From: Escherichia coli
Lineage (GTDB): Bacteria > Pseudomonadota > Gammaproteobacteria > Enterobacterales > Enterobacteriaceae
Length of the DNA stretch: 64,000 bases
Reading direction: 5' to 3' (one strand)
Assembly (NCBI RefSeq): GCF_003334385.1
Contig: NZ_QOWN01000026.1
Below the pieces are notes generated by a model that was not told where the DNA came from, ran no database searches, and saw nothing but the letters and a program-made list of their open reading frames with translations. A program made the position numbers and the translations under genes. Of this stretch, positions 3,906 through 56,550 are shown piece after piece. How positions within the stretch are numbered: position 1 is the stretch's first letter; the number at the start of each line of letters is the position of its first letter.

Positions 3906-4039
3906 ATATACTGCTTCTTCGTTTATCGTTGGGGTTTTACGGCTTTGCCGTTTAATATAGTGTGCTATTGTAGCTGGTCTTAACCGGGAGCAGGAACAGA
4001 GAATCTCCCGTATTACATTTTGAGGAAAGTCAAAACGTC

Positions 4040-4777
4040 ATGACGCGCATGAAATATCTGGTGGCAGCCGCCACACTAAGCCTGTTTTTGGCGGGTTGCT
4101 CGGGGTCAAAGGAAGAAGTACCTGATAATCCGCCAAATGAAATTTACGCGACTGCACAACAAAAGCTGCAGGACGGTAACTGGAGACAGGCAATAACGCA
4201 ACTGGAAGCGTTAGATAATCGCTATCCGTTTGGTCCGTATTCGCAGCAGGTGCAGCTGGATCTCATCTACGCCTACTATAAAAACGCCGATTTGCCGTTA
4301 GCACAGGCTGCCATCGATCGTTTTATTCGCCTTAACCCGACCCATCCGAATATCGATTATGTCATGTACATGCGTGGCCTGACCAATATGGCGCTGGATG
4401 ACAGTGCGCTGCAAGGGTTCTTTGGCGTCGATCGTAGCGATCGCGATCCTCAACATGCACGAGCTGCGTTTAGTGACTTTTCCAAACTGGTGCGCGGCTA
4501 TCCGAACAGTCAGTACACCACCGATGCCACCAAACGTCTGGTATTCCTGAAAGATCGTCTGGCGAAATATGAATACTCCGTGGCCGAGTACTATACAGAA
4601 CGTGGCGCATGGGTTGCCGTCGTTAACCGCGTAGAAGGCATGTTGCGCGACTACCCGGATACCCAGGCTACGCGTGATGCGCTGCCGCTGATGGAAAATG
4701 CATACCGTCAGATGCAGATGAATGCGCAAGCTGAAAAAGTAGCGAAAATCATCGCCGCAAACAGCAGCAATACATAA
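4040..4777 (+). CDS. bamD: Outer-membrane assembly lipoprotein BamD (YfiO)
   Basis: 245-aa ORF with lipoprotein signal (LFLAGC lipobox) and TPR-like repeats; divergent from rluD. Confidence 0.92.
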
Positions 4778-4794
4778 CAGAAACCTGAAACACA

Positions 4795-4827
4795 AAACGG
4801 CAGCCCTTGAGCTGCCGTTTTTTTATT
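4795..4827 (+). terminator. Rho-independent terminator after bamD
   Basis: GC-rich hairpin AACGGCAGC...GCTGCCGTT followed by a T7 run. Confidence 0.7.
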
Positions 4828-4993
4828 CTGTCAGTTGTGAAACTGAAGCGATTTAGTCGCTATCGATCTCATCAAATATGGCTCGCTTTGAGATATTCCT
4901 CAAGTAAAAAAACATCTCTTCCTGCGATTTCTCACAAAAAAGATTCGTTGACAAAAAGTGACAAAATTATGAGATTTTCATCACACATTTTGA

Positions 4994-5389
<396 letters not shown>

Positions 5390-5415
5390 TCCTTTATATT
5401 GAGTGTATCGCCAAC

Positions 5416-5438
5416 GCGCCTTCGGGCGCGTTTTTTGT
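5416..5438 (+). terminator. Rho-independent terminator after raiA
   Basis: Hairpin GCGCCTTCGGGCGCG followed by TTTTTTG. Confidence 0.7.
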
Positions 5439-5472
5439 TGACAGCGTGAAAACAGTACGGGTACTGTACTAA
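5437..5472 (+). promoter_or_regulatory. Candidate pheLA promoter
   Basis: TTGACA at 5437-5442 with a -10-like TACTGT ~18 nt downstream, ~50 nt upstream of pheL. Confidence 0.4.
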
Positions 5473-5492
5473 AGTCACTTAAGGAAACAAAC

Positions 5493-5540
5493 ATGAAACA
5501 CATACCGTTTTTCTTCGCATTCTTTTTTACCTTCCCCTGA
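5493..5540 (+). CDS. pheL: pheA attenuator leader peptide PheL
   Basis: 15-codon [18 protein letters not shown] with 7 Phe codons, directly upstream of pheA. Confidence 0.9.
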
Positions 5541-5586
5541 ATGGGAGGCGTTTCGTCGTGTGAAACAGAATGCGAAGACGAACAAT

Positions 5587-5616
5587 AAGGCCTCCCAAAT
5601 CGGGGGGCCTTTTTTA
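5587..5616 (+). terminator. pheA attenuator terminator
   Basis: Hairpin AAGGCCTCCC...GGGGGGCCTT followed by TTTTTT between pheL and pheA. Confidence 0.8.
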
Positions 5617-5638
5617 TTGATAACAAAAAGGCAACACT

Positions 5639-6799
5639 ATGACATCGGAAAACCCGTTACTGGCGCTGCGAGAGAAAATCAGCGCGCTGGATGAAAAATT
5701 ATTAGCGTTACTGGCAGAACGGCGCGAACTGGCCGTCGAGGTGGGAAAAGCCAAACTGCTCTCGCATCGCCCGGTACGTGATATTGATCGTGAACGCGAT
5801 TTGCTGGAAAGATTAATTACGCTCGGTAAAGCGCACCATCTGGACGCCCATTACATTACTCGCCTGTTCCAGCTCATCATTGAAGATTCCGTATTAACTC
5901 AGCAGGCTTTGCTCCAACAACATCTCAATAAAATTAATCCGCACTCAGCACGCATCGCTTTTCTCGGCCCCAAAGGTTCTTATTCCCATCTTGCGGCGCG
6001 CCAGTATGCTGCCCGTCACTTTGAGCAATTCATTGAAAGTGGCTGCGCCAAATTTGCCGATATTTTTAATCAGGTGGAAACCGGCCAGGCCGACTATGCC
6101 GTCGTACCGATTGAAAATACCAGCTCCGGTGCCATAAACGACGTTTACGATCTGCTGCAACATACCAGCTTGTCGATTGTTGGCGAGATGACGTTAACTA
6201 TCGACCATTGTTTGTTGGTCTCCGGCACTACTGATTTATCCACCATCAATACGGTCTACAGCCATCCGCAGCCATTCCAGCAATGCAGCAAATTCCTTAA
6301 TCGTTATCCGCACTGGAAGATTGAATATACCGAAAGTACGTCTGCGGCAATGGAAAAGGTTGCACAGGCAAAATCACCGCATGTTGCTGCGTTGGGAAGC
6401 GAAGCTGGCGGCACTTTGTACGGTTTGCAGGTACTGGAGCGTATTGAAGCAAATCAGCGACAAAACTTCACCCGATTTGTGGTGTTGGCGCGTAAAGCCA
6501 TTAACGTGTCTGATCAGGTTCCGGCGAAAACCACGTTGTTAATGGCGACCGGGCAACAAGCCGGTGCGCTGGTTGAAGCGTTGCTGGTACTGCGCAACCA
6601 CAATCTGATTATGACCCGTCTGGAATCACGCCCGATTCACGGTAATCCATGGGAAGAGATGTTCTATCTGGATATTCAGGCCAATCTTGAATCAGCGGAA
6701 ATGCAAAAAGCATTGAAAGAGTTAGGGGAAATCACCCGTTCAATGAAGGTATTGGGCTGTTACCCAAGTGAGAACGTAGTGCCTGTTGATCCAACCTGA
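5639..6799 (+). CDS. pheA: Bifunctional chorismate mutase / prephenate dehydratase PheA
   Basis: 386-aa ORF with N-terminal chorismate mutase region and C-terminal ACT-like domain. Confidence 0.95.
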
Positions 6800-6809
6800 T
6801 GAAAAGGTG

Positions 6810-6833
6810 CCGGATGATGTGAATCATCCGGCA
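6810..6833. terminator. Bidirectional hairpin between convergent pheA and tyrA
   Basis: Inverted repeat GCCGGATGATG...CATCCGGC between the two stop codons. Confidence 0.55.
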
Positions 6834-6841
6834 CTGGATTA

Positions 6842-7963
6842 TTACTGGCGATTGTCATTCGCCTGACGCAATAACACGCGGCTTTCACTCTGAAAACGCT
6901 GTGCGTAATCGCCGAACCAGTGCTCCACCTTGCGGAAACTGTCAATAAACGCCTGCTTATCGCCCTGCTCCAGCAACTCAATCGCCTCGCCGAAACGCTT
7001 ATAGTAACGTTTGATTAACGCCAGATTACGCTCTGACGACATAATGATGTCGGCATAAAGCTGCGGATCCTGAGCAAACAGTCGCCCGACCATCGCCAGC
7101 TCAAGGCGGTAAATCGGCGAAGAGAGCGCCAGAAGTTGCTCAAGCTGAACATTTTCTTCTGCCAGGTGCAGCCCGTAAGCAAAAGTAGCAAAGTGGCGCA
7201 GTGCCTGAATAAACGCCATATTCTGATCGTGCTCGACGGCGCTAATACGATGCAGTCGAGCGCCCCAGACCTGAATTTGCTCCAGAAACCATTGGTATGC
7301 TTCCGGTTTACGTCCATCACACCAGACCACAACTTGCTTTGCCAGGCTACCGCTGTCCGGACCGAACATCGGGTGTAGCCCCAGCACCGGACCATCATGC
7401 GCCACCAGCATGGCCTGTAATGGCCCATTTTTCACTGATGCCAGATCGACCAGAATACAATCTTTCGGTAAAGGCGGTAATTTGCCAATAACTTGCTCAG
7501 TAACGTGGATTGGCACACTAACAATCACCATTCCGGCATCGGCAACAATATCAGCCGCTCGATCCCAGTCATGTTGCTCCAGAATCCGCACCTGATAACC
7601 CGAGAGGGTCAGCATCTTCTCGAACAGGCGTCCCATCTGACCGCCACCGCCGACGATAACCACCGGACGCAGTGACGGACAAAGTGTTTTAAATCCTTTG
7701 TCGTTTTCACTGGAGTAAGATTCACGCATCACCCGACGCAAAACATCCTCAATCAGATCTGGCGGTACACCCAGAGCTTCCGCCTCTGCACGACGCGAGG
7801 CCAACATAGATGCCTCGCGCTCCGGAACATAAATAGGCAGTCCAAAGCGGCTTTTCACCTCGCCCACTTCAGCAACCAGTTCCAGACGCTTCGCTAATAA
7901 ATTCAGCAGCGCTTTATCGACTTCATCAATTTGATCGCGTAATGCGGTCAATTCAGCAACCAT
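6842..7963 (-). CDS. tyrA: Bifunctional chorismate mutase / prephenate dehydrogenase TyrA
   Basis: 373-aa [32 protein letters not shown]... Confidence 0.95.
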
Positions 7964-7973
7964 AATAAACCTC

Positions 7974-9044
7974 TTAAGCCACGCGAGCCGTCAGCTGCCC
8001 GTTCAGATCCTGATGAATTTCACGCAGCAAGGCATCGGTCATTTCCCAGCTAATGCAGGCATCGGTTACGGATACACCGTATTTCATTTCACTGCGCGGT
8101 TGCTCGGAAGACTGATTGCCCTCGTGGATATTACTTTCGATCATCAGACCAATAATTGAGCGATTGCCATCTTTGATTTGAGCAACCACGGATTCTGCCA
8201 CCGCAGGCTGACGGCGATAATCTTTATTGGAATTACCGTGGCTGCAATCTACCATCAGAGACGGGCGCAGTCCCGCCTGTTCCATCTCTTTTTCACATTG
8301 CGCAACATCCGCAGGGCTATAGTTCGGCGCTTTACCACCGCGCAGGATCACATGGCCGTCCGGATTCCCCTGAGTTTGTAGCAACGCAACCTGCCCTGCC
8401 TGGTTAATGCCAACAAAACGGTGCGGCTGGGCGGCGGCGCGCATAGCGTTAATTGCTGTTGCCAGACTGCCGTCGGTGCCGTTTTTAAAACCAACCGGCA
8501 TGGAAAGCCCGGAGGCCATTTCACGGTGAGTTTGCGATTCCGTTGTACGAGCACCAATTGCTGACCAGCTAAACAGATCGCCCAGGTATTGCGGGCTATT
8601 CGGATCTAACGCTTCCGTCGCCAGTGGCAGTCCCATATTCACCAGCTCAAGCAGCAATTTACGCGCGATCTGCAGCCCGGCTTCTACATCAAAAGAGCCA
8701 TCCATATGGGGATCGTTAATTAACCCTTTCCAGCCGACAGTGGTACGGGGTTTTTCAAAATAGACGCGCATTACCAGATAGAGGCTATCGCTGACCTCTG
8801 CGGCAAGGGCTTTAAATCGACGAGCATATTCCAGAGCAGTTTCCGGATCATGAATGGAACAAGGACCACATACTACCAGCAGACGAGGATCGCGCCCGGC
8901 GATAATATCTGAAATGCTTTTACGCGAGTCAGCAATCTGGGCTTCTTGTTGCAGGCTCAATGGAAAAGCGGCCTTCAGTTGTTCCGGAGTCATTAAAACC
9001 TGTTCGTCGGTAATATGTACGTTATTCAGCGCGTCTTTTTGCAT
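7974..9044 (-). CDS. aroF: Tyr-sensitive DAHP synthase AroF
   Basis: Track ORF is 379 aa from an upstream alternative start; I take the start at [15 protein letters not shown] (356 aa), immediately upstream of tyrA. Confidence 0.9.
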
Positions 9045-9138
9045 GATGGCGATCCTGTTTATGCTCGTTTGCGATAGTTGATCCTCAGCGAGGATGACGT
9101 AACGATAACACATAAAGTAAAGTTTTCAATCCATATTT

Positions 9139-9208
9139 CGTACACTTTTATTTACACAGGCAATTTAGTCGCGCTTTCAACCCTTACCTCTGTATAGATA
9201 AATTTACA
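9139..9208 (-). promoter_or_regulatory. Candidate TyrR boxes in the aroF control region
   Basis: Two 18-bp palindromes matching TGTAAA-N6-TTTACA: minus-strand TGTAAATAAAAGTGTACG (9139-9156) and TGTATAGATAAATTTACA (9191-9208). Confidence 0.5.
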
Positions 9209-9253
9209 CTCCCTTTGAAAACAATCCGCTATGCTTTGAAAAAGGAGAAAGAA

Positions 9254-9619
9254 ATGATGAAAAAGTTTATCGCCCCCTTGTTGGCTTTACTGGTTAGCGG
9301 ATGTCAGATTGATCCTTATACTCACGCGCCAACCTTGACCAGCACCGACTGGTATGATGTCGGTATGGAAGATGCGATATCGGGCAGCGCCATAAAAGAT
9401 GACGATGCATTTAGCGATTCACAGGCGGATCGCGGTCTATACCTTAAAGGATATGCCGAAGGACAAAAGAAAACTTGCCAGACCGATTTTACTTATGCCC
9501 GAGGACTTTCCGGTAAAAGCTTTCCTGCCAGCTGCAACAATGTTGAAAATGCCAGCCAACTGCATGAAGTATGGCAAAAAGGGGCTGATGAAAATGCCAG
9601 CACAATACGATTAAATTAA
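9254..9619 (+). CDS. yfiL: Lipoprotein YfiL
   Basis: 121-aa ORF from MMKKFIAPLLALLVSGCQ (lipobox); the track start 9215 is an upstream extension. Confidence 0.8.
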   Translation: MMKKFIAPLLALLVSGCQIDPYTHAPTLTSTDWYDVGMEDAISGSAIKDDDAFSDSQADRGLYLKGYAEGQKKTCQTDFTYARGLSGKSFPASCNNVENASQLHEVWQKGADENASTIRLN

Positions 9620-9768
9620 TTAAAACCCCACAAATAAATTAAACATAAGATTTTACTCATTGTGTTTTATTTCTCACATTGATGACGGTCGCATGAAAAA
9701 ATGATATTTTAATGAGCATTCTGAAAAAATATCGATGCATTTCGAGCGAAGATGGTGGGGATCCCTGA

Positions 9769-10287
9769 ATGCGTTTTTCTCACCGACTGTTCTTACTTCT
9801 GATTCTCCTGCTGACGGGAGCACCAATACTCGCTCAGGAGCCTTCTGACGTTGCGAAAAACGTGCGTATGATGGTTTCCGGTATTGTCAGTTACACCCGC
9901 TGGCCTGCGCTATCAGGGCCACCAAAGTTATGTATCTTTTCATCTTCACGTTTTAGTACCGCCCTACAAGAGAATGCCGCGACATCTTTGCCTTATCTGC
10001 CTGTCATCATTCACACTCAACAAGAGGCGATGATTTCAGGCTGCAATGGTTTTTATTTTGGCAACGAGTCACCGACATTCCAGATGGAATTAACCGAACA
10101 ATATCCGTCAAAGGCGTTATTATTAATTGCCGAACAAAATACCGAGTGCATTATTGGTAGCGCCTTTTGTCTGATCATCCACAATAATGACGTCAGATTT
10201 GCCGTAAACCTGGATGCCTTATCGCGTAGCGGTGTAAAGGTCAACCCGGATGTCTTAATGCTCGCACGGAAGAAAAATGATGGATAA
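9769..10287 (+). CDS. yfiR: Periplasmic repressor YfiR of the YfiN diguanylate cyclase
   Basis: 172-aa ORF with signal peptide, first gene of the yfiRNB cluster. Confidence 0.85.
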
Positions 10288-11503
10288 CGATAATTCTCTT
10301 AATAAGCGCCCCACGTTTAAAAGAGCATTACGCAACATCAGTATGACCAGCATATTTATCACTATGATGCTGATCTGGTTGCTGCTTTCCGTGACCTCGG
10401 TGCTGACCCTGAAACAGTACGCGCAAAAAAACCTGGCACTGACAGCAGCAACAATGACTTACAGTCTGGAAGCAGCTGTCGTTTTTGCCGATGGCCCTGC
10501 AGCAACTGAAACACTGGCAGCGCTGGGCCAGCAAGGGCAATTTTCAACTGCAGAAGTACGTGATAAGCAGCAAAATATTCTGGCATCCTGGCATTACACC
10601 CGTAAGGATCCAGGCGATACTTTCAGTAATTTCATAAGCCACTGGCTCTTCCCTGCCCCCATCATTCAGCCGATTCGTCACAATGGTGAAACCATTGGCG
10701 AAGTACGCTTAACCGCTCGCGACAGTTCAATCAGCCATTTTATCTGGTTTTCGCTCGCCGTACTGACCGGTTGTATTCTGCTGGCATCAGGCATCGCAAT
10801 TACCCTCACCCGCCATTTGCACAATGGCCTGGTAGAAGCGCTGAAAAATATCACCGATGTCGTACATGATGTGCGTTCCAACCGCAATTTTTCCCGACGA
10901 GTTTCGGAAGAACGTATCGCTGAGTTTCACCGCTTCGCTCTCGACTTCAACAGTCTGCTGGATGAAATGGAAGAGTGGCAACTTCGTTTACAGGCTAAAA
11001 ATGCGCAGCTTCTACGTACCGCGCTACATGACCCATTAACCGGGCTGGCTAACCGCGCAGCGTTTCGTAGCGGCATCAACACGTTGATGAACAATTCCGA
11101 TGCCCGAAAAACGTCGGCGTTACTATTTCTTGATGGCGATAATTTCAAATACATCAATGATACCTGGGGTCATGCGACGGGCGATAGAGTCTTGATTGAA
11201 ATCGCAAAACGGTTAGCTGAATTTGGCGGGCTGCGACATAAAGCATACCGCCTGGGCGGCGATGAATTCGCTATGGTGCTCTATGATGTACAGTCGGAAT
11301 CTGAAGTGCAGCAGATATGTTCAGCACTGACACAAATCTTTAATCTCCCGTTTGATCTTCATAATGGCCATCAGACCACCATGACATTAAGCATTGGTTA
11401 CGCGATGACCATTGAGCACGCCTCTGCGGAAAAATTACAAGAGCTTGCCGATCACAATATGTATCAGGCCAAACACCAGCGTGCCGAAAAGCTGGTGAGA
11501 TAA
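10277..11503 (+). CDS. dgcN: Membrane diguanylate cyclase YfiN/DgcN
   Basis: 408-aa ORF with N-terminal TM/periplasmic domain, HAMP region and a GGDEF motif (RLGGDEF). Confidence 0.9.
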
Positions 11504-52938: not shown

Positions 52939-52995
52939 CTCTGCACTTGCCCGGTGACGCCGGGCATTATCACCCTGCCAAAAAAAGGAATAACA

Positions 52996-53988
52996 ATGCG
53001 ACATAGCGTACTTTTTGCGACAGCGTTTGCCACGCTTATCTCTACACAAACTTTTGCTGCCGATCTGCCGGGCAAAGGCATTACTGTTAATCCAGTTCAG
53101 AGCACCATCACTGAAGAAACCTTCCAGACGCTGCTGGTCAGTCGTGCGCTGGAGAAATTAGGTTATACCGTCAACAAACCCAGCGAAGTAGATTACAACG
53201 TTGGCTACACCTCGCTTGCTTCCGGCGATGCAACCTTCACCGCCGTGAACTGGACGCCACTGCATGACAACATGTACGAAGCTGCCGGTGGCGATAAGAA
53301 ATTTTATCGTGAAGGGGTATTTGTTAACGGCGCGGCACAGGGTTACCTGATCGATAAGAAAACCGCCGACCAGTACAAAATCACCAACATCGCACAACTG
53401 AAAGATCCGAAGATCGCCAAACTGTTCGATACCAACGGCGACGGAAAAGCGGATTTAACCGGTTGTAACCCTGGCTGGGGCTGCGAAGGTGCGATCAACC
53501 ACCAGCTTGCCGCGTATGAACTGACCAACACCGTGACGCATAATCAGGGGAACTACGCAGCGATGATGGCCGACACCATCAGTCGCTACAAAGAGGGCAA
53601 ACCGGTGTTTTATTACACCTGGACGCCGTACTGGGTGAGTAACGAACTGAAGCCGGGCAAAGATGTCGTCTGGTTGCAGGTGCCGTTCTCCGCACTGCCG
53701 GGCGATAAAAACGCCGATACCAAACTGCCGAATGGTGCGAATTATGGCTTCCCGGTCAGCACCATGCATATCGTTGCCAACAAAGCCTGGGCCGAGAAAA
53801 ACCCGGCAGCAGCGAAACTGTTTGCCATTATGCAGTTGCCAGTGGCAGATATTAACGCCCAGAACGCCATTATGCATGACGGCAAAGCCTCAGAAGGCGA
53901 TATTCAGGGACACGTTGATGGTTGGATCAAAGCCCACCAGCAGCAGTTCGATGGCTGGGTGAATGAGGCGCTGGCAGCGCAGAAGTAA
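52996..53988 (+). CDS. proX: Glycine betaine-binding periplasmic protein ProX
   Basis: 330-aa ORF from [26 protein letters not shown] (signal peptide); the track start is 14 codons upstream. Confidence 0.95.
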
Positions 53989-53996
53989 TTTTTATT

Positions 53997-54078
53997 CGGG
54001 CGGATAAGGCGTTTTTGCCGCATCCGCCGTTCTGTGCACAATGCCTGATGCGACGCTGGCGCGTCTTATCATGCCTAC
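53997..54078. repeat. REP/BIME elements downstream of proX
   Basis: Two REP units (CGGGCGGATAAGGCGTTTTTGCCGCATCCGCC and GCCTGATGCGACGCTGGCGCGTCTTATCATGCCTAC). Confidence 0.8.
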
Positions 54079-54179
54079 AAACCACATCGCACATTTCAAC
54101 AATCTATCTTTCATCCCATATTCATCAACATCCGCTATTATTGATTTCCAGCTTAATCATCACCTGATGAACAAAAATA

Positions 54180-55364
54180 ATGACTAAACCTAATCATGAG
54201 CTTAGCCCGGCGCTGATCGTGCTGATGTCTATCGCCACCGGTCTGGCGGTAGCCAGTAACTATTACGCCCAGCCATTGCTCGACACCATCGCGCGTAACT
54301 TTTCCCTTTCCGCCAGTTCGGCAGGCTTTATTGTTACCGCCGCGCAGTTGGGCTATGCCGCAGGTCTACTGTTTCTTGTTCCCCTCGGTGATATGTTTGA
54401 ACGCCGCCGCCTGATTGTCTCGATGACCTTACTGGCGGCATGCGGCATGTTGATTACCGCCAGCAGTCAGTCGCTGGCGATGATGATCCTCGGTACGGCA
54501 TTAACCGGTTTATTCTCAGTCGTGGCACAAATTCTGGTTCCGCTGGCAGCGACGCTGGCTTCACCGGATAAACGCGGCAAAGTGGTTGGCACTATTATGA
54601 GCGGTCTGCTGTTGGGGATCTTGCTGGCACGGACAGTTGCCGGATTGCTGGCGAATCTCGGCGGCTGGCGCACCGTCTTTTGGGTTGCTTCGGTGTTAAT
54701 GGCACTGATGGCGCTGGCATTATGGCGTGGTCTGCCACAAATGAAATCAGAAACCCACCTCAACTACCCACAGTTGTTGGGTTCCGTTTTCAGTATGTTT
54801 ATCAGCGATAAAATTCTGCGTACCCGCGCGTTGCTGGGCTGCCTGACCTTTGCCAATTTCAGCATTCTCTGGACCTCAATGGCCTTTTTGCTTGCCGCTC
54901 CACCTTTTAACTACAGCGATGGTGTCATTGGTCTGTTTGGACTTGCGGGAGCTGCCGGAGCGTTGGGCGCTCGTCCGGCGGGCGGTTTTGCCGATAAGGG
55001 CAAATCGCACCACACCACAACTTTCGGTCTGCTGCTGCTATTACTTTCATGGCTGGCGATCTGGTTTGGTCACACTTCCGTACTGGCGTTGATTATCGGA
55101 ATCCTGGTGCTGGATCTCACCGTGCAGGGCGTGCATATCACTAACCAGACGGTAATTTATCGGATACATCCTGATGCGCGCAATCGCCTGACCGCAGGTT
55201 ACATGACTAGCTACTTTATTGGCGGTGCCGCCGGTTCGCTAATTTCAGCCTCAGCCTGGCAACATGGCGGTTGGGCTGGCGTTTGTCTGGCTGGCGCGAC
55301 GATTGCCCTGGTTAACTTACTGGTCTGGTGGCGAGGTTTTCATCGTCAGGAAGCCGCAAATTAA
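54180..55364 (+). CDS. ygaY: MFS-family transporter YgaY (12-TM), intact
   Basis: Uninterrupted 394-aa ORF with TM-rich composition. Confidence 0.8.
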   Translation: MTKPNHELSPALIVLMSIATGLAVASNYYAQPLLDTIARNFSLSASSAGFIVTAAQLGYAAGLLFLVPLGDMFERRRLIVSMTLLAACGMLITASSQSLAMMILGTALTGLFSVVAQILVPLAATLASPDKRGKVVGTIMSGLLLGILLARTVAGLLANLGGWRTVFWVASVLMALMALALWRGLPQMKSETHLNYPQLLGSVFSMFISDKILRTRALLGCLTFANFSILWTSMAFLLAAPPFNYSDGVIGLFGLAGAAGALGARPAGGFADKGKSHHTTTFGLLLLLLSWLAIWFGHTSVLALIIGILVLDLTVQGVHITNQTVIYRIHPDARNRLTAGYMTSYFIGGAAGSLISASAWQHGGWAGVCLAGATIALVNLLVWWRGFHRQEAAN

Positions 55365-55487: not shown

Positions 55488-56225
55488 ATGGAAAGCCCTA
55501 CTCCACAGCCTGCTCCTGGTTCGGCGACCTTCATGGAAGGATGCAAAGACAGTTTACCGATTGTTATTAGTTATATTCCGGTGGCCTTTGCGTTCGGTCT
55601 GAATGCGACCCGTCTGGGATTCTCTCCTCTCGAAAGCGTTTTTTTCTCCTGCATCATTTATGCAGGCGCGAGCCAGTTCGTCATTACCGCGATGCTGGCA
55701 GCCGGGAGTAGTTTGTGGATTGCTGCACTGACCGTCATGGCAATGGATGTTCGCCATGTGTTGTATGGCCCGTCACTGCGTAGCCGTATTATTCAGCGTC
55801 TGCAAAAATCGAAAACCGCCCTGTGGGCGTTTGGCCTGACGGATGAGGTTTTTGCCGCCGCAACCGCAAAACTGGTACGCAATAATCGCCGCTGGAGCGA
55901 GAACTGGATGATCGGCATTGCCTTCAGTTCATGGTCATCGTGGGTATTTGGTACGGTAATAGGGGCATTCTCCGGCAGCGGCTTGCTGCAAGGTTATCCC
56001 GCCGTTGAAGCTGCATTAGGTTTTATGCTTCCGGCACTCTTTATGAGTTTCCTGCTCGCCTCTTTCCAGCGCAAACAATCTCTTTGCGTTACCGCAGCGT
56101 TAGTTGGTGCCCTTGCAGGCGTAACGCTATTTTCTATTCCCGTCGCCATTCTGGCAGGCATTGTCTGTGGCTGCCTCACTGCGTTAATCCAGGCATTCTG
56201 GCAAGGAGCGCCCGATGAGCTATGA
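55488..56225 (+). CDS. ygaZ: AzlC-family branched-chain amino-acid exporter subunit YgaZ
   Basis: 245-aa membrane ORF overlapping ygaH by 11 bp. Confidence 0.9.
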
Positions 56226-56550
56226 GGTTCTGCTGCTTGGGTTACTAGTTGGCGTGGCGAATTATTGCTTCCGCTATTTGCCGCTGCGCCTGCGTGTGGG
56301 TAATGCCCGCCCAACCAAACGTGGCGCGGTAGGTATTTTGCTCGACACCATTGGCATCGCCTCGATATGCGCTCTGCTGGTTGTCTCTACCGCACCAGAA
56401 GTGATGCACGATACACGCCGTTTCGTGCCCACGCTGGTCGGCTTCGCGGTACTGGGTGCCAGTTTCTATAAAACACGCAGCATTATCATCCCAACACTGC
56501 TTAGTGCGCTGGCCTATGGGCTCGCCTGGAAAGTGATGGCGATTATATAA
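56215..56550 (+). CDS. ygaH: AzlD-family exporter subunit YgaH
   Basis: 111-aa membrane ORF. Confidence 0.9.

Follow-up and report, generated by a model that had tools for sequence, protein, structure and literature searches.

An uninterrupted ygaY transporter gene in an Escherichia coli close to K-12, and the probable loss of one heptamer unit from its K-12 counterpart

We analyzed a 64,000-bp stretch of Escherichia coli DNA (the window), in which the transporter gene ygaY, of the Major Facilitator Superfamily (MFS), occupies positions 54180–55364 on the + strand. In the ORF listing, this gene appears as an open frame of 394 codons, running from ATG to TAA without interruption and placed in the order proX, ygaY, ygaZ. 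The ORF listing and the comparison of annotations showed that the neighbors on both sides are intact and are also encoded on the + strand. Upstream is proX (52954–53988), the listed frame of which opens with a GTG that precedes the annotated start. Downstream are the genes of the L-valine exporter subunits, ygaZ-ygaH (55488–56550), of which ygaZ takes up 55488–56225 and is followed by ygaH. The wider setting consists of proVWX on one side and ygaZH-mprA-emrAB on the other. The DNA of the window ygaY is 100% identical to that of the 'MFS transporter' gene WP_000165680.1, which is annotated in many complete E. coli genomes. The copy in E. coli SCU-104 (HHJ22_RS19255) is the same allele as that of the window, with DNA, synteny and length all equal. 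An open frame of 394 codons is no chance ORF.

The intergenic region between proX and ygaY (53989–54179) contains a multi-copy REP-like palindromic sequence at 53989–54100. A query that included 54000–54179 matched at a median of 8 and at up to 28 places per genome, compared with a single place for the ygaY ORF alone. Scanning the region upstream of ygaY revealed no strong sigma-70 consensus and no convincing promoter, and the counts from the promoter and terminator scans around the gene were not above the shuffled expectation.

Next, we looked at the protein family of YgaY. The Pfam profile MFS_1 (PF07690) matched both halves of the protein, at residues 17–273 (8.5e-32) and 218–385 (3.2e-11), which places YgaY in the Major Facilitator Superfamily by profile; Sugar_tr and MFS_4 gave weaker Pfam matches. 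A crude Kyte-Doolittle scan showed six clear hydrophobic segments in the N-terminal half and three above the threshold in the C-terminal half. Motif A was sought as G-x-x-x-D-R/K-x-G-R-R/K in the TM2-TM3 loop; this regular expression had no match, and residues 69–77 (LGDMFERRR), which are in the right place, resemble the motif by eye.

All the similarities to more specific families were weak. In NCBIfam, all of the 25 families listed scored below their curated cut-offs, the best reaching 78.5 bits against 418.55. The best full-length similarities, also sub-threshold, were to the 'sugar transporter' PRK03545, with 64 bits against a cut-off of 401, and to Cmx/CmrA (54 bits); EmrD (39 bits) and two Bcr/CflA models (52 bits) gave partial matches of ∼240–300 residues. 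The PDB sequence relatives, namely GlcP (N-terminal half only), EmrD and the sugar efflux transporter 6kki, were likewise all weak. Among these, the 12-TM efflux-type MFS proteins PRK03545, Cmx/CmrA and 6kki can be aligned with almost the whole of YgaY; however, with 39–64 bits against cut-offs of 200–480 bits, YgaY is a member of none of the named efflux families. The putative MFS transporter YnfM (b1596) aligned over the full length (26% identity, E = 6e-21) and has the same MFS architecture, but it is a distant paralogue at a different locus. As these similarities are those of a generic MFS protein, assignment of YgaY to a specific functional family was dropped. The profiles predict that YgaY is a generic MFS_1 inner-membrane transporter. 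It is probably a proton-coupled secondary transporter, with export the more likely direction, a biochemical role that we infer from the sequence.

The initial annotation had reported the intact 394-codon frame at these very coordinates, which the ORF listing bore out exactly, and had stated that ygaY is an interrupted pseudogene in K-12. This statement was correct. In K-12 MG1655 (NC_000913.3), ygaY is b2681, a pseudogene of 1178 bp at 2808316–2809493, also located in the interval between proX and ygaZ. A pairwise alignment with the K-12 locus, which had been proposed as the way to identify the lesion, gave a clear answer: the lesion is a 7-bp deletion of one tandem heptamer unit, causing a frameshift. 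In this global alignment, the sole difference was 7 bp (window 54435–54441) that are absent from K-12, the remaining 1178 of 1178 aligned bases being the same at the same locus. The pairwise and multiple alignments placed the missing bases in a perfect tandem repeat, GCGGCAT GCGGCAT, at 54435–54448 on the + strand, of which K-12 retains one unit. The local sequence is CTG GCGGCAT GCGGCAT GTTG in the window and CTG GCGGCAT GTTG in K-12. Thus, MG1655 has one unit and a broken frame, whereas the window copy, with two units and all 394 codons open, is not an allele of the K-12 type. Because the loss of 7 bp shifts the frame, the K-12 sequence reads ...LLAAC and then TGA right after codon 88, leaving an 88-residue stub, and the remainder of the protein is encoded downstream of this TGA in another frame. 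The K-12 gene was formerly split as b2680 and b2681. In the crude hydropathy scan, the break falls within the third hydrophobic segment (residues 78–96).

We then compared nine intact alleles, the window copy among them, at the site of the repeat. Codon 88 (54441–54443, + strand) is TGC (Cys) in the window and in NCTC10444 only; it is GGC (Gly) in the seven others, as in most E. coli. In the seven GGC alleles, the heptamer site reads GCGGCAG·GCGGCAT or GCAGCGG·GCGGTAT. The repeat is therefore perfect in this sub-lineage because of a G-to-T substitution that changes GGC to TGC (Gly88Cys). The comparison indicates that Cys88, which lies in the predicted TM3, is a derived, non-conservative change. 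Since the rest of the ORF does not differ between K-12 and the window, the window allele is exactly the one that preceded the deletion in K-12. The ygaY of NCTC10444 does not differ from that of the window in its first ∼360 nt, where both the perfect repeat and the TGC codon lie, and thereafter is like those of the divergent lineages, which suggests that it may be an intragenic recombination mosaic.

From these comparisons, we consider it highly probable that the window ygaY is an ordinary functional wild-type allele and that the K-12 pseudogene arose by a lineage-specific loss of one heptamer unit. In this scheme, the Gly88Cys substitution in a sub-lineage first made the GCGGCAT·GCGGCAT repeat perfect. 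Subsequently, a K-12 ancestor with exactly the window allele lost one unit; the structure of the repeat, from which alone the cause is deduced, makes replication slippage the most likely one. The resulting −7 frameshift inside the predicted TM3 brought a TGA into frame straight after codon 88. There is also a slim chance that the substitution itself had consequences. It may have made ygaY a slippage-prone and potentially reversible on/off gene in a phylogroup-A sub-lineage, or Cys88 may have impaired the protein before the loss in K-12; in the latter case, the loss would have followed relaxed selection.

The distribution of the two alleles was monitored in a set of 5,426 complete E. coli genomes, using junction-specific queries built such that the alternative allele cannot give a 28-base megablast seed. 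The one-copy junction (43-mer) was present in 353 of the 5,426 genomes, and among the matches listed (120 in all, the top 60 and an evenly spaced 60), every carrier read as a K-12 derivative, as judged by strain names and not by phylogeny. The named carriers include MG1655, BW25113, W3110-type strains, C600, J53, DH1, DH5alpha, JM109, MC4100, S17-1 and O16:H48. The perfect two-copy 44-mer was found exactly in 685 of the 5,426 genomes, a count that leaves out lineages with SNPs inside the query, and the query for a three-copy allele had no match in the same set. Going by the matches listed, the one-copy allele is restricted, within the complete-genome set, to the laboratory K-12 lineage.

These data bear on the possibility that the two heptamers act as a contingency switch, by which ygaY is turned off and on through reversible slippage, K-12 being a captured 'off' variant. 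A perfect tandem repeat located at the exact site of the lesion, with a unit length that is not a multiple of 3, would suit such a device. However, a one-copy allele seen, among the matches listed, only in apparent K-12 derivatives fits a single event, and the lack of a three-copy allele in the 5,426 genomes also speaks against a switch. Furthermore, known phase-variable loci have repeat tracts far longer than the two units present here. The recurrent, independent changes of unit number that define a phase-variable locus were not found at ygaY, and we regard the switch as very improbable.

Another way of reading the open frame is as a decaying relic that is open by chance or recency, with K-12 displaying the general trend. 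This would be in line with the normal growth of K-12 without ygaY and with the lack of a known phenotype. It would also be in line with the independent losses: 7 of the 5,426 genomes have no ygaY match, and PCP06021 (NZ_CM129877.1) has only the first 158 bp of the gene, in a match that overlaps a feature annotated as ygaH. Rare independent losses of ygaY do occur outside K-12. In contrast, 5414 of the 5426 complete genomes have ygaY at a coverage of at least 80%, and the length does not vary among the intact copies that were sampled. Among 40 records sampled at even spacing, all 36 of the full-length copies outside K-12 were exactly 1185 bp, the other four being three K-12-type records of 1178 bp and the one genome with 158 bp. 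By its position between proX and ygaZ-ygaH, by nucleotide identities of 95.9–100% and by the conserved length of 1185 bp, the window gene belongs to the E. coli ygaY orthologue group. ygaY is a core E. coli gene.

The pattern of substitutions is also not that of a relic. We aligned eight divergent alleles (99.0–95.9% identity), all annotated as intact CDSs and none flagged as a pseudogene, with the window copy. The first stop was at codon 395 in all nine. By the Nei-Gojobori method, the mean dS was 0.12 and the mean dN 0.0033, a ratio of 0.028, at dS values of up to 0.157. A dN/dS of ∼0.03 means that strong purifying selection acts on the intact ygaY within the species, and we therefore hold it very unlikely that the open frame is a relic.

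The initial annotation had also proposed that the strain is not identical to K-12, and the window as a whole supports this proposal. Window positions 17894–64000 are 99.93–99.98% identical to K-12 2,750,000–2,818,129, with 20 SNPs over this K-12 interval and 4 more in the first 18 kb, 24 in total against MG1655. The alignment to K-12 skips from 2,755,956 to 2,777,964, and therefore CP4-57, a 22-kb cryptic prophage of K-12 (2,755,941–2,777,971), is absent from the window. Its attachment site at the window ssrA is unoccupied; ssrA itself is intact (23487–23849) and encodes the normal tag peptide ANDENYALAA. In other wild genomes, two-piece matches showed different islands at the site of the ssrA 3′ end. 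The wild isolate SCU-104, a human commensal, is collinear with the whole 64,000-bp window, without gaps and with 20 SNPs. No complete genome was identical to the window, the best 25-kb matches being slightly below the perfect score. The end of the window (63519–64000) is inside the tandem tRNA-Arg(ACG) array (argQ/Z/Y/V), where internal repeats match at 91–100% identity. Thus, the source of the window is a wild-type-like E. coli strain that is close to K-12 and not K-12 itself. The idea that the window belongs to a K-12 derivative whose ygaY regained the 7 bp by duplication, through reversion or engineered repair, could draw on an ORF that is 100% identical to that of K-12 bar the 7 bp and on 46 kb of flanking DNA at 99.93% identity, but it is effectively refuted by the missing 22-kb prophage at an intact ssrA site, the 24 SNPs (one of which makes a ypjA amber that K-12 is without), the gapless collinearity with a wild isolate and the exact occurrence of the two-copy allele in 685 genomes.

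Relative to both K-12 and SCU-104, the window has 14 private SNPs, at positions 7256, 9145, 16938, 26848, 28518, 30095, 30486, 33932, 34704, 45248, 51005, 52240, 59764 and 61826, and 12 of the 14 are G-to-A or C-to-T changes. None creates a stop, several are synonymous, and the coding changes in proteins that K-12 annotates as intact are alaE S74N, proW V123I and gshA A162E. When 11 of the private alleles were tested, no complete genome was found to have more than one of them. On the terminal branch of SCU-104, 5 of 6 changes follow this bias. Because this branch is biased alike, we read the private SNPs as very recent mutations with the AT bias that is usual for them. Chemical mutagenesis or a DNA-damage artefact was considered and is an unnecessary explanation, given the equal bias of the SCU-104 branch, the lack of new stops and the synonymous changes.

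The intact ygaY had been set against neighboring island genes that carry ambers. Five in-frame TAG codons are indeed present in the island genes beside tRNA-Ile(CAU): at codon 232 of ypjA (27895–27897; CAG in K-12, the change being at window 27897), at codon 161 of ypjCB (30393–30395) and at codons 111, 346 and 614 of ygaQ (32591–32593, 33296–33298 and 34100–34102). These genes, however, lie 20–30 kb upstream of ygaY, and the immediate neighbors are intact. TAG at all five stops, with no TAA and no TGA, is mildly unexpected. All five ambers are also present in SCU-104, where the genes are flagged 'internal stop' in RefSeq. K-12 is the same as the window at the ypjCB and ygaQ codons, which fits its split ypjB/ypjC and its ygaQ pseudogene. 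As four of the five are common to K-12, the ambers are mostly older than the split between K-12 and the window, and we rejected the view that they are lesions specific to this strain.

In GF66.2 (3979–11103 of its locus), ypjCB and the ygaQ homologue carry IS1 and IS3 insertions together with internal stops. This genome was considered as an intact reference for the ancestral ypjCB and ygaQ codons and was set aside, since its copies are broken too. The disruptions in GF66.2 appear to show that decay of the island is ongoing in several lineages.

The initial annotation had further offered ygaY as a contrast case for the lesion spectrum. A contrast does exist, between an apparent slippage deletion in K-12 ygaY and point nonsense mutations in the island genes. 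It says little about a common spectrum, because the lesions differ in lineage and in age.

In the literature, ygaY is handled as a pseudogene. Its Keio deletion served as a pseudogene control (Price et al., bioRxiv 10.1101/072470), and, in metabolic engineering, the gene was used as a chromosomal integration site together with other loci, among them ybeM, yncI, ycgH, ilvG, ycjV, yghX and ylbE (PMC11731478). Therefore, the pseudogene status in K-12 is common knowledge. Rashid et al. (Nat Commun 2023, PMC10656529) described a NAP-mediated bridge that links ygaY with the downstream regulatory element of proVWX, attributed this bridge to H-NS, and measured ygaY transcripts in the K-12 strain NT331. 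The difference between an intact ygaY and that of K-12 is thus an already known, ordinary strain difference, to which the present analysis adds only the exact mechanism of the lesion and the substitution that made the repeat. The overall weight of the finding is small. The allele is a correct strain marker that separates the window from K-12, and ygaY, which is widely employed in K-12 as a 'neutral pseudogene' for controls or for integration, is in other hosts an intact gene under purifying selection that an insertion at this site disrupts.
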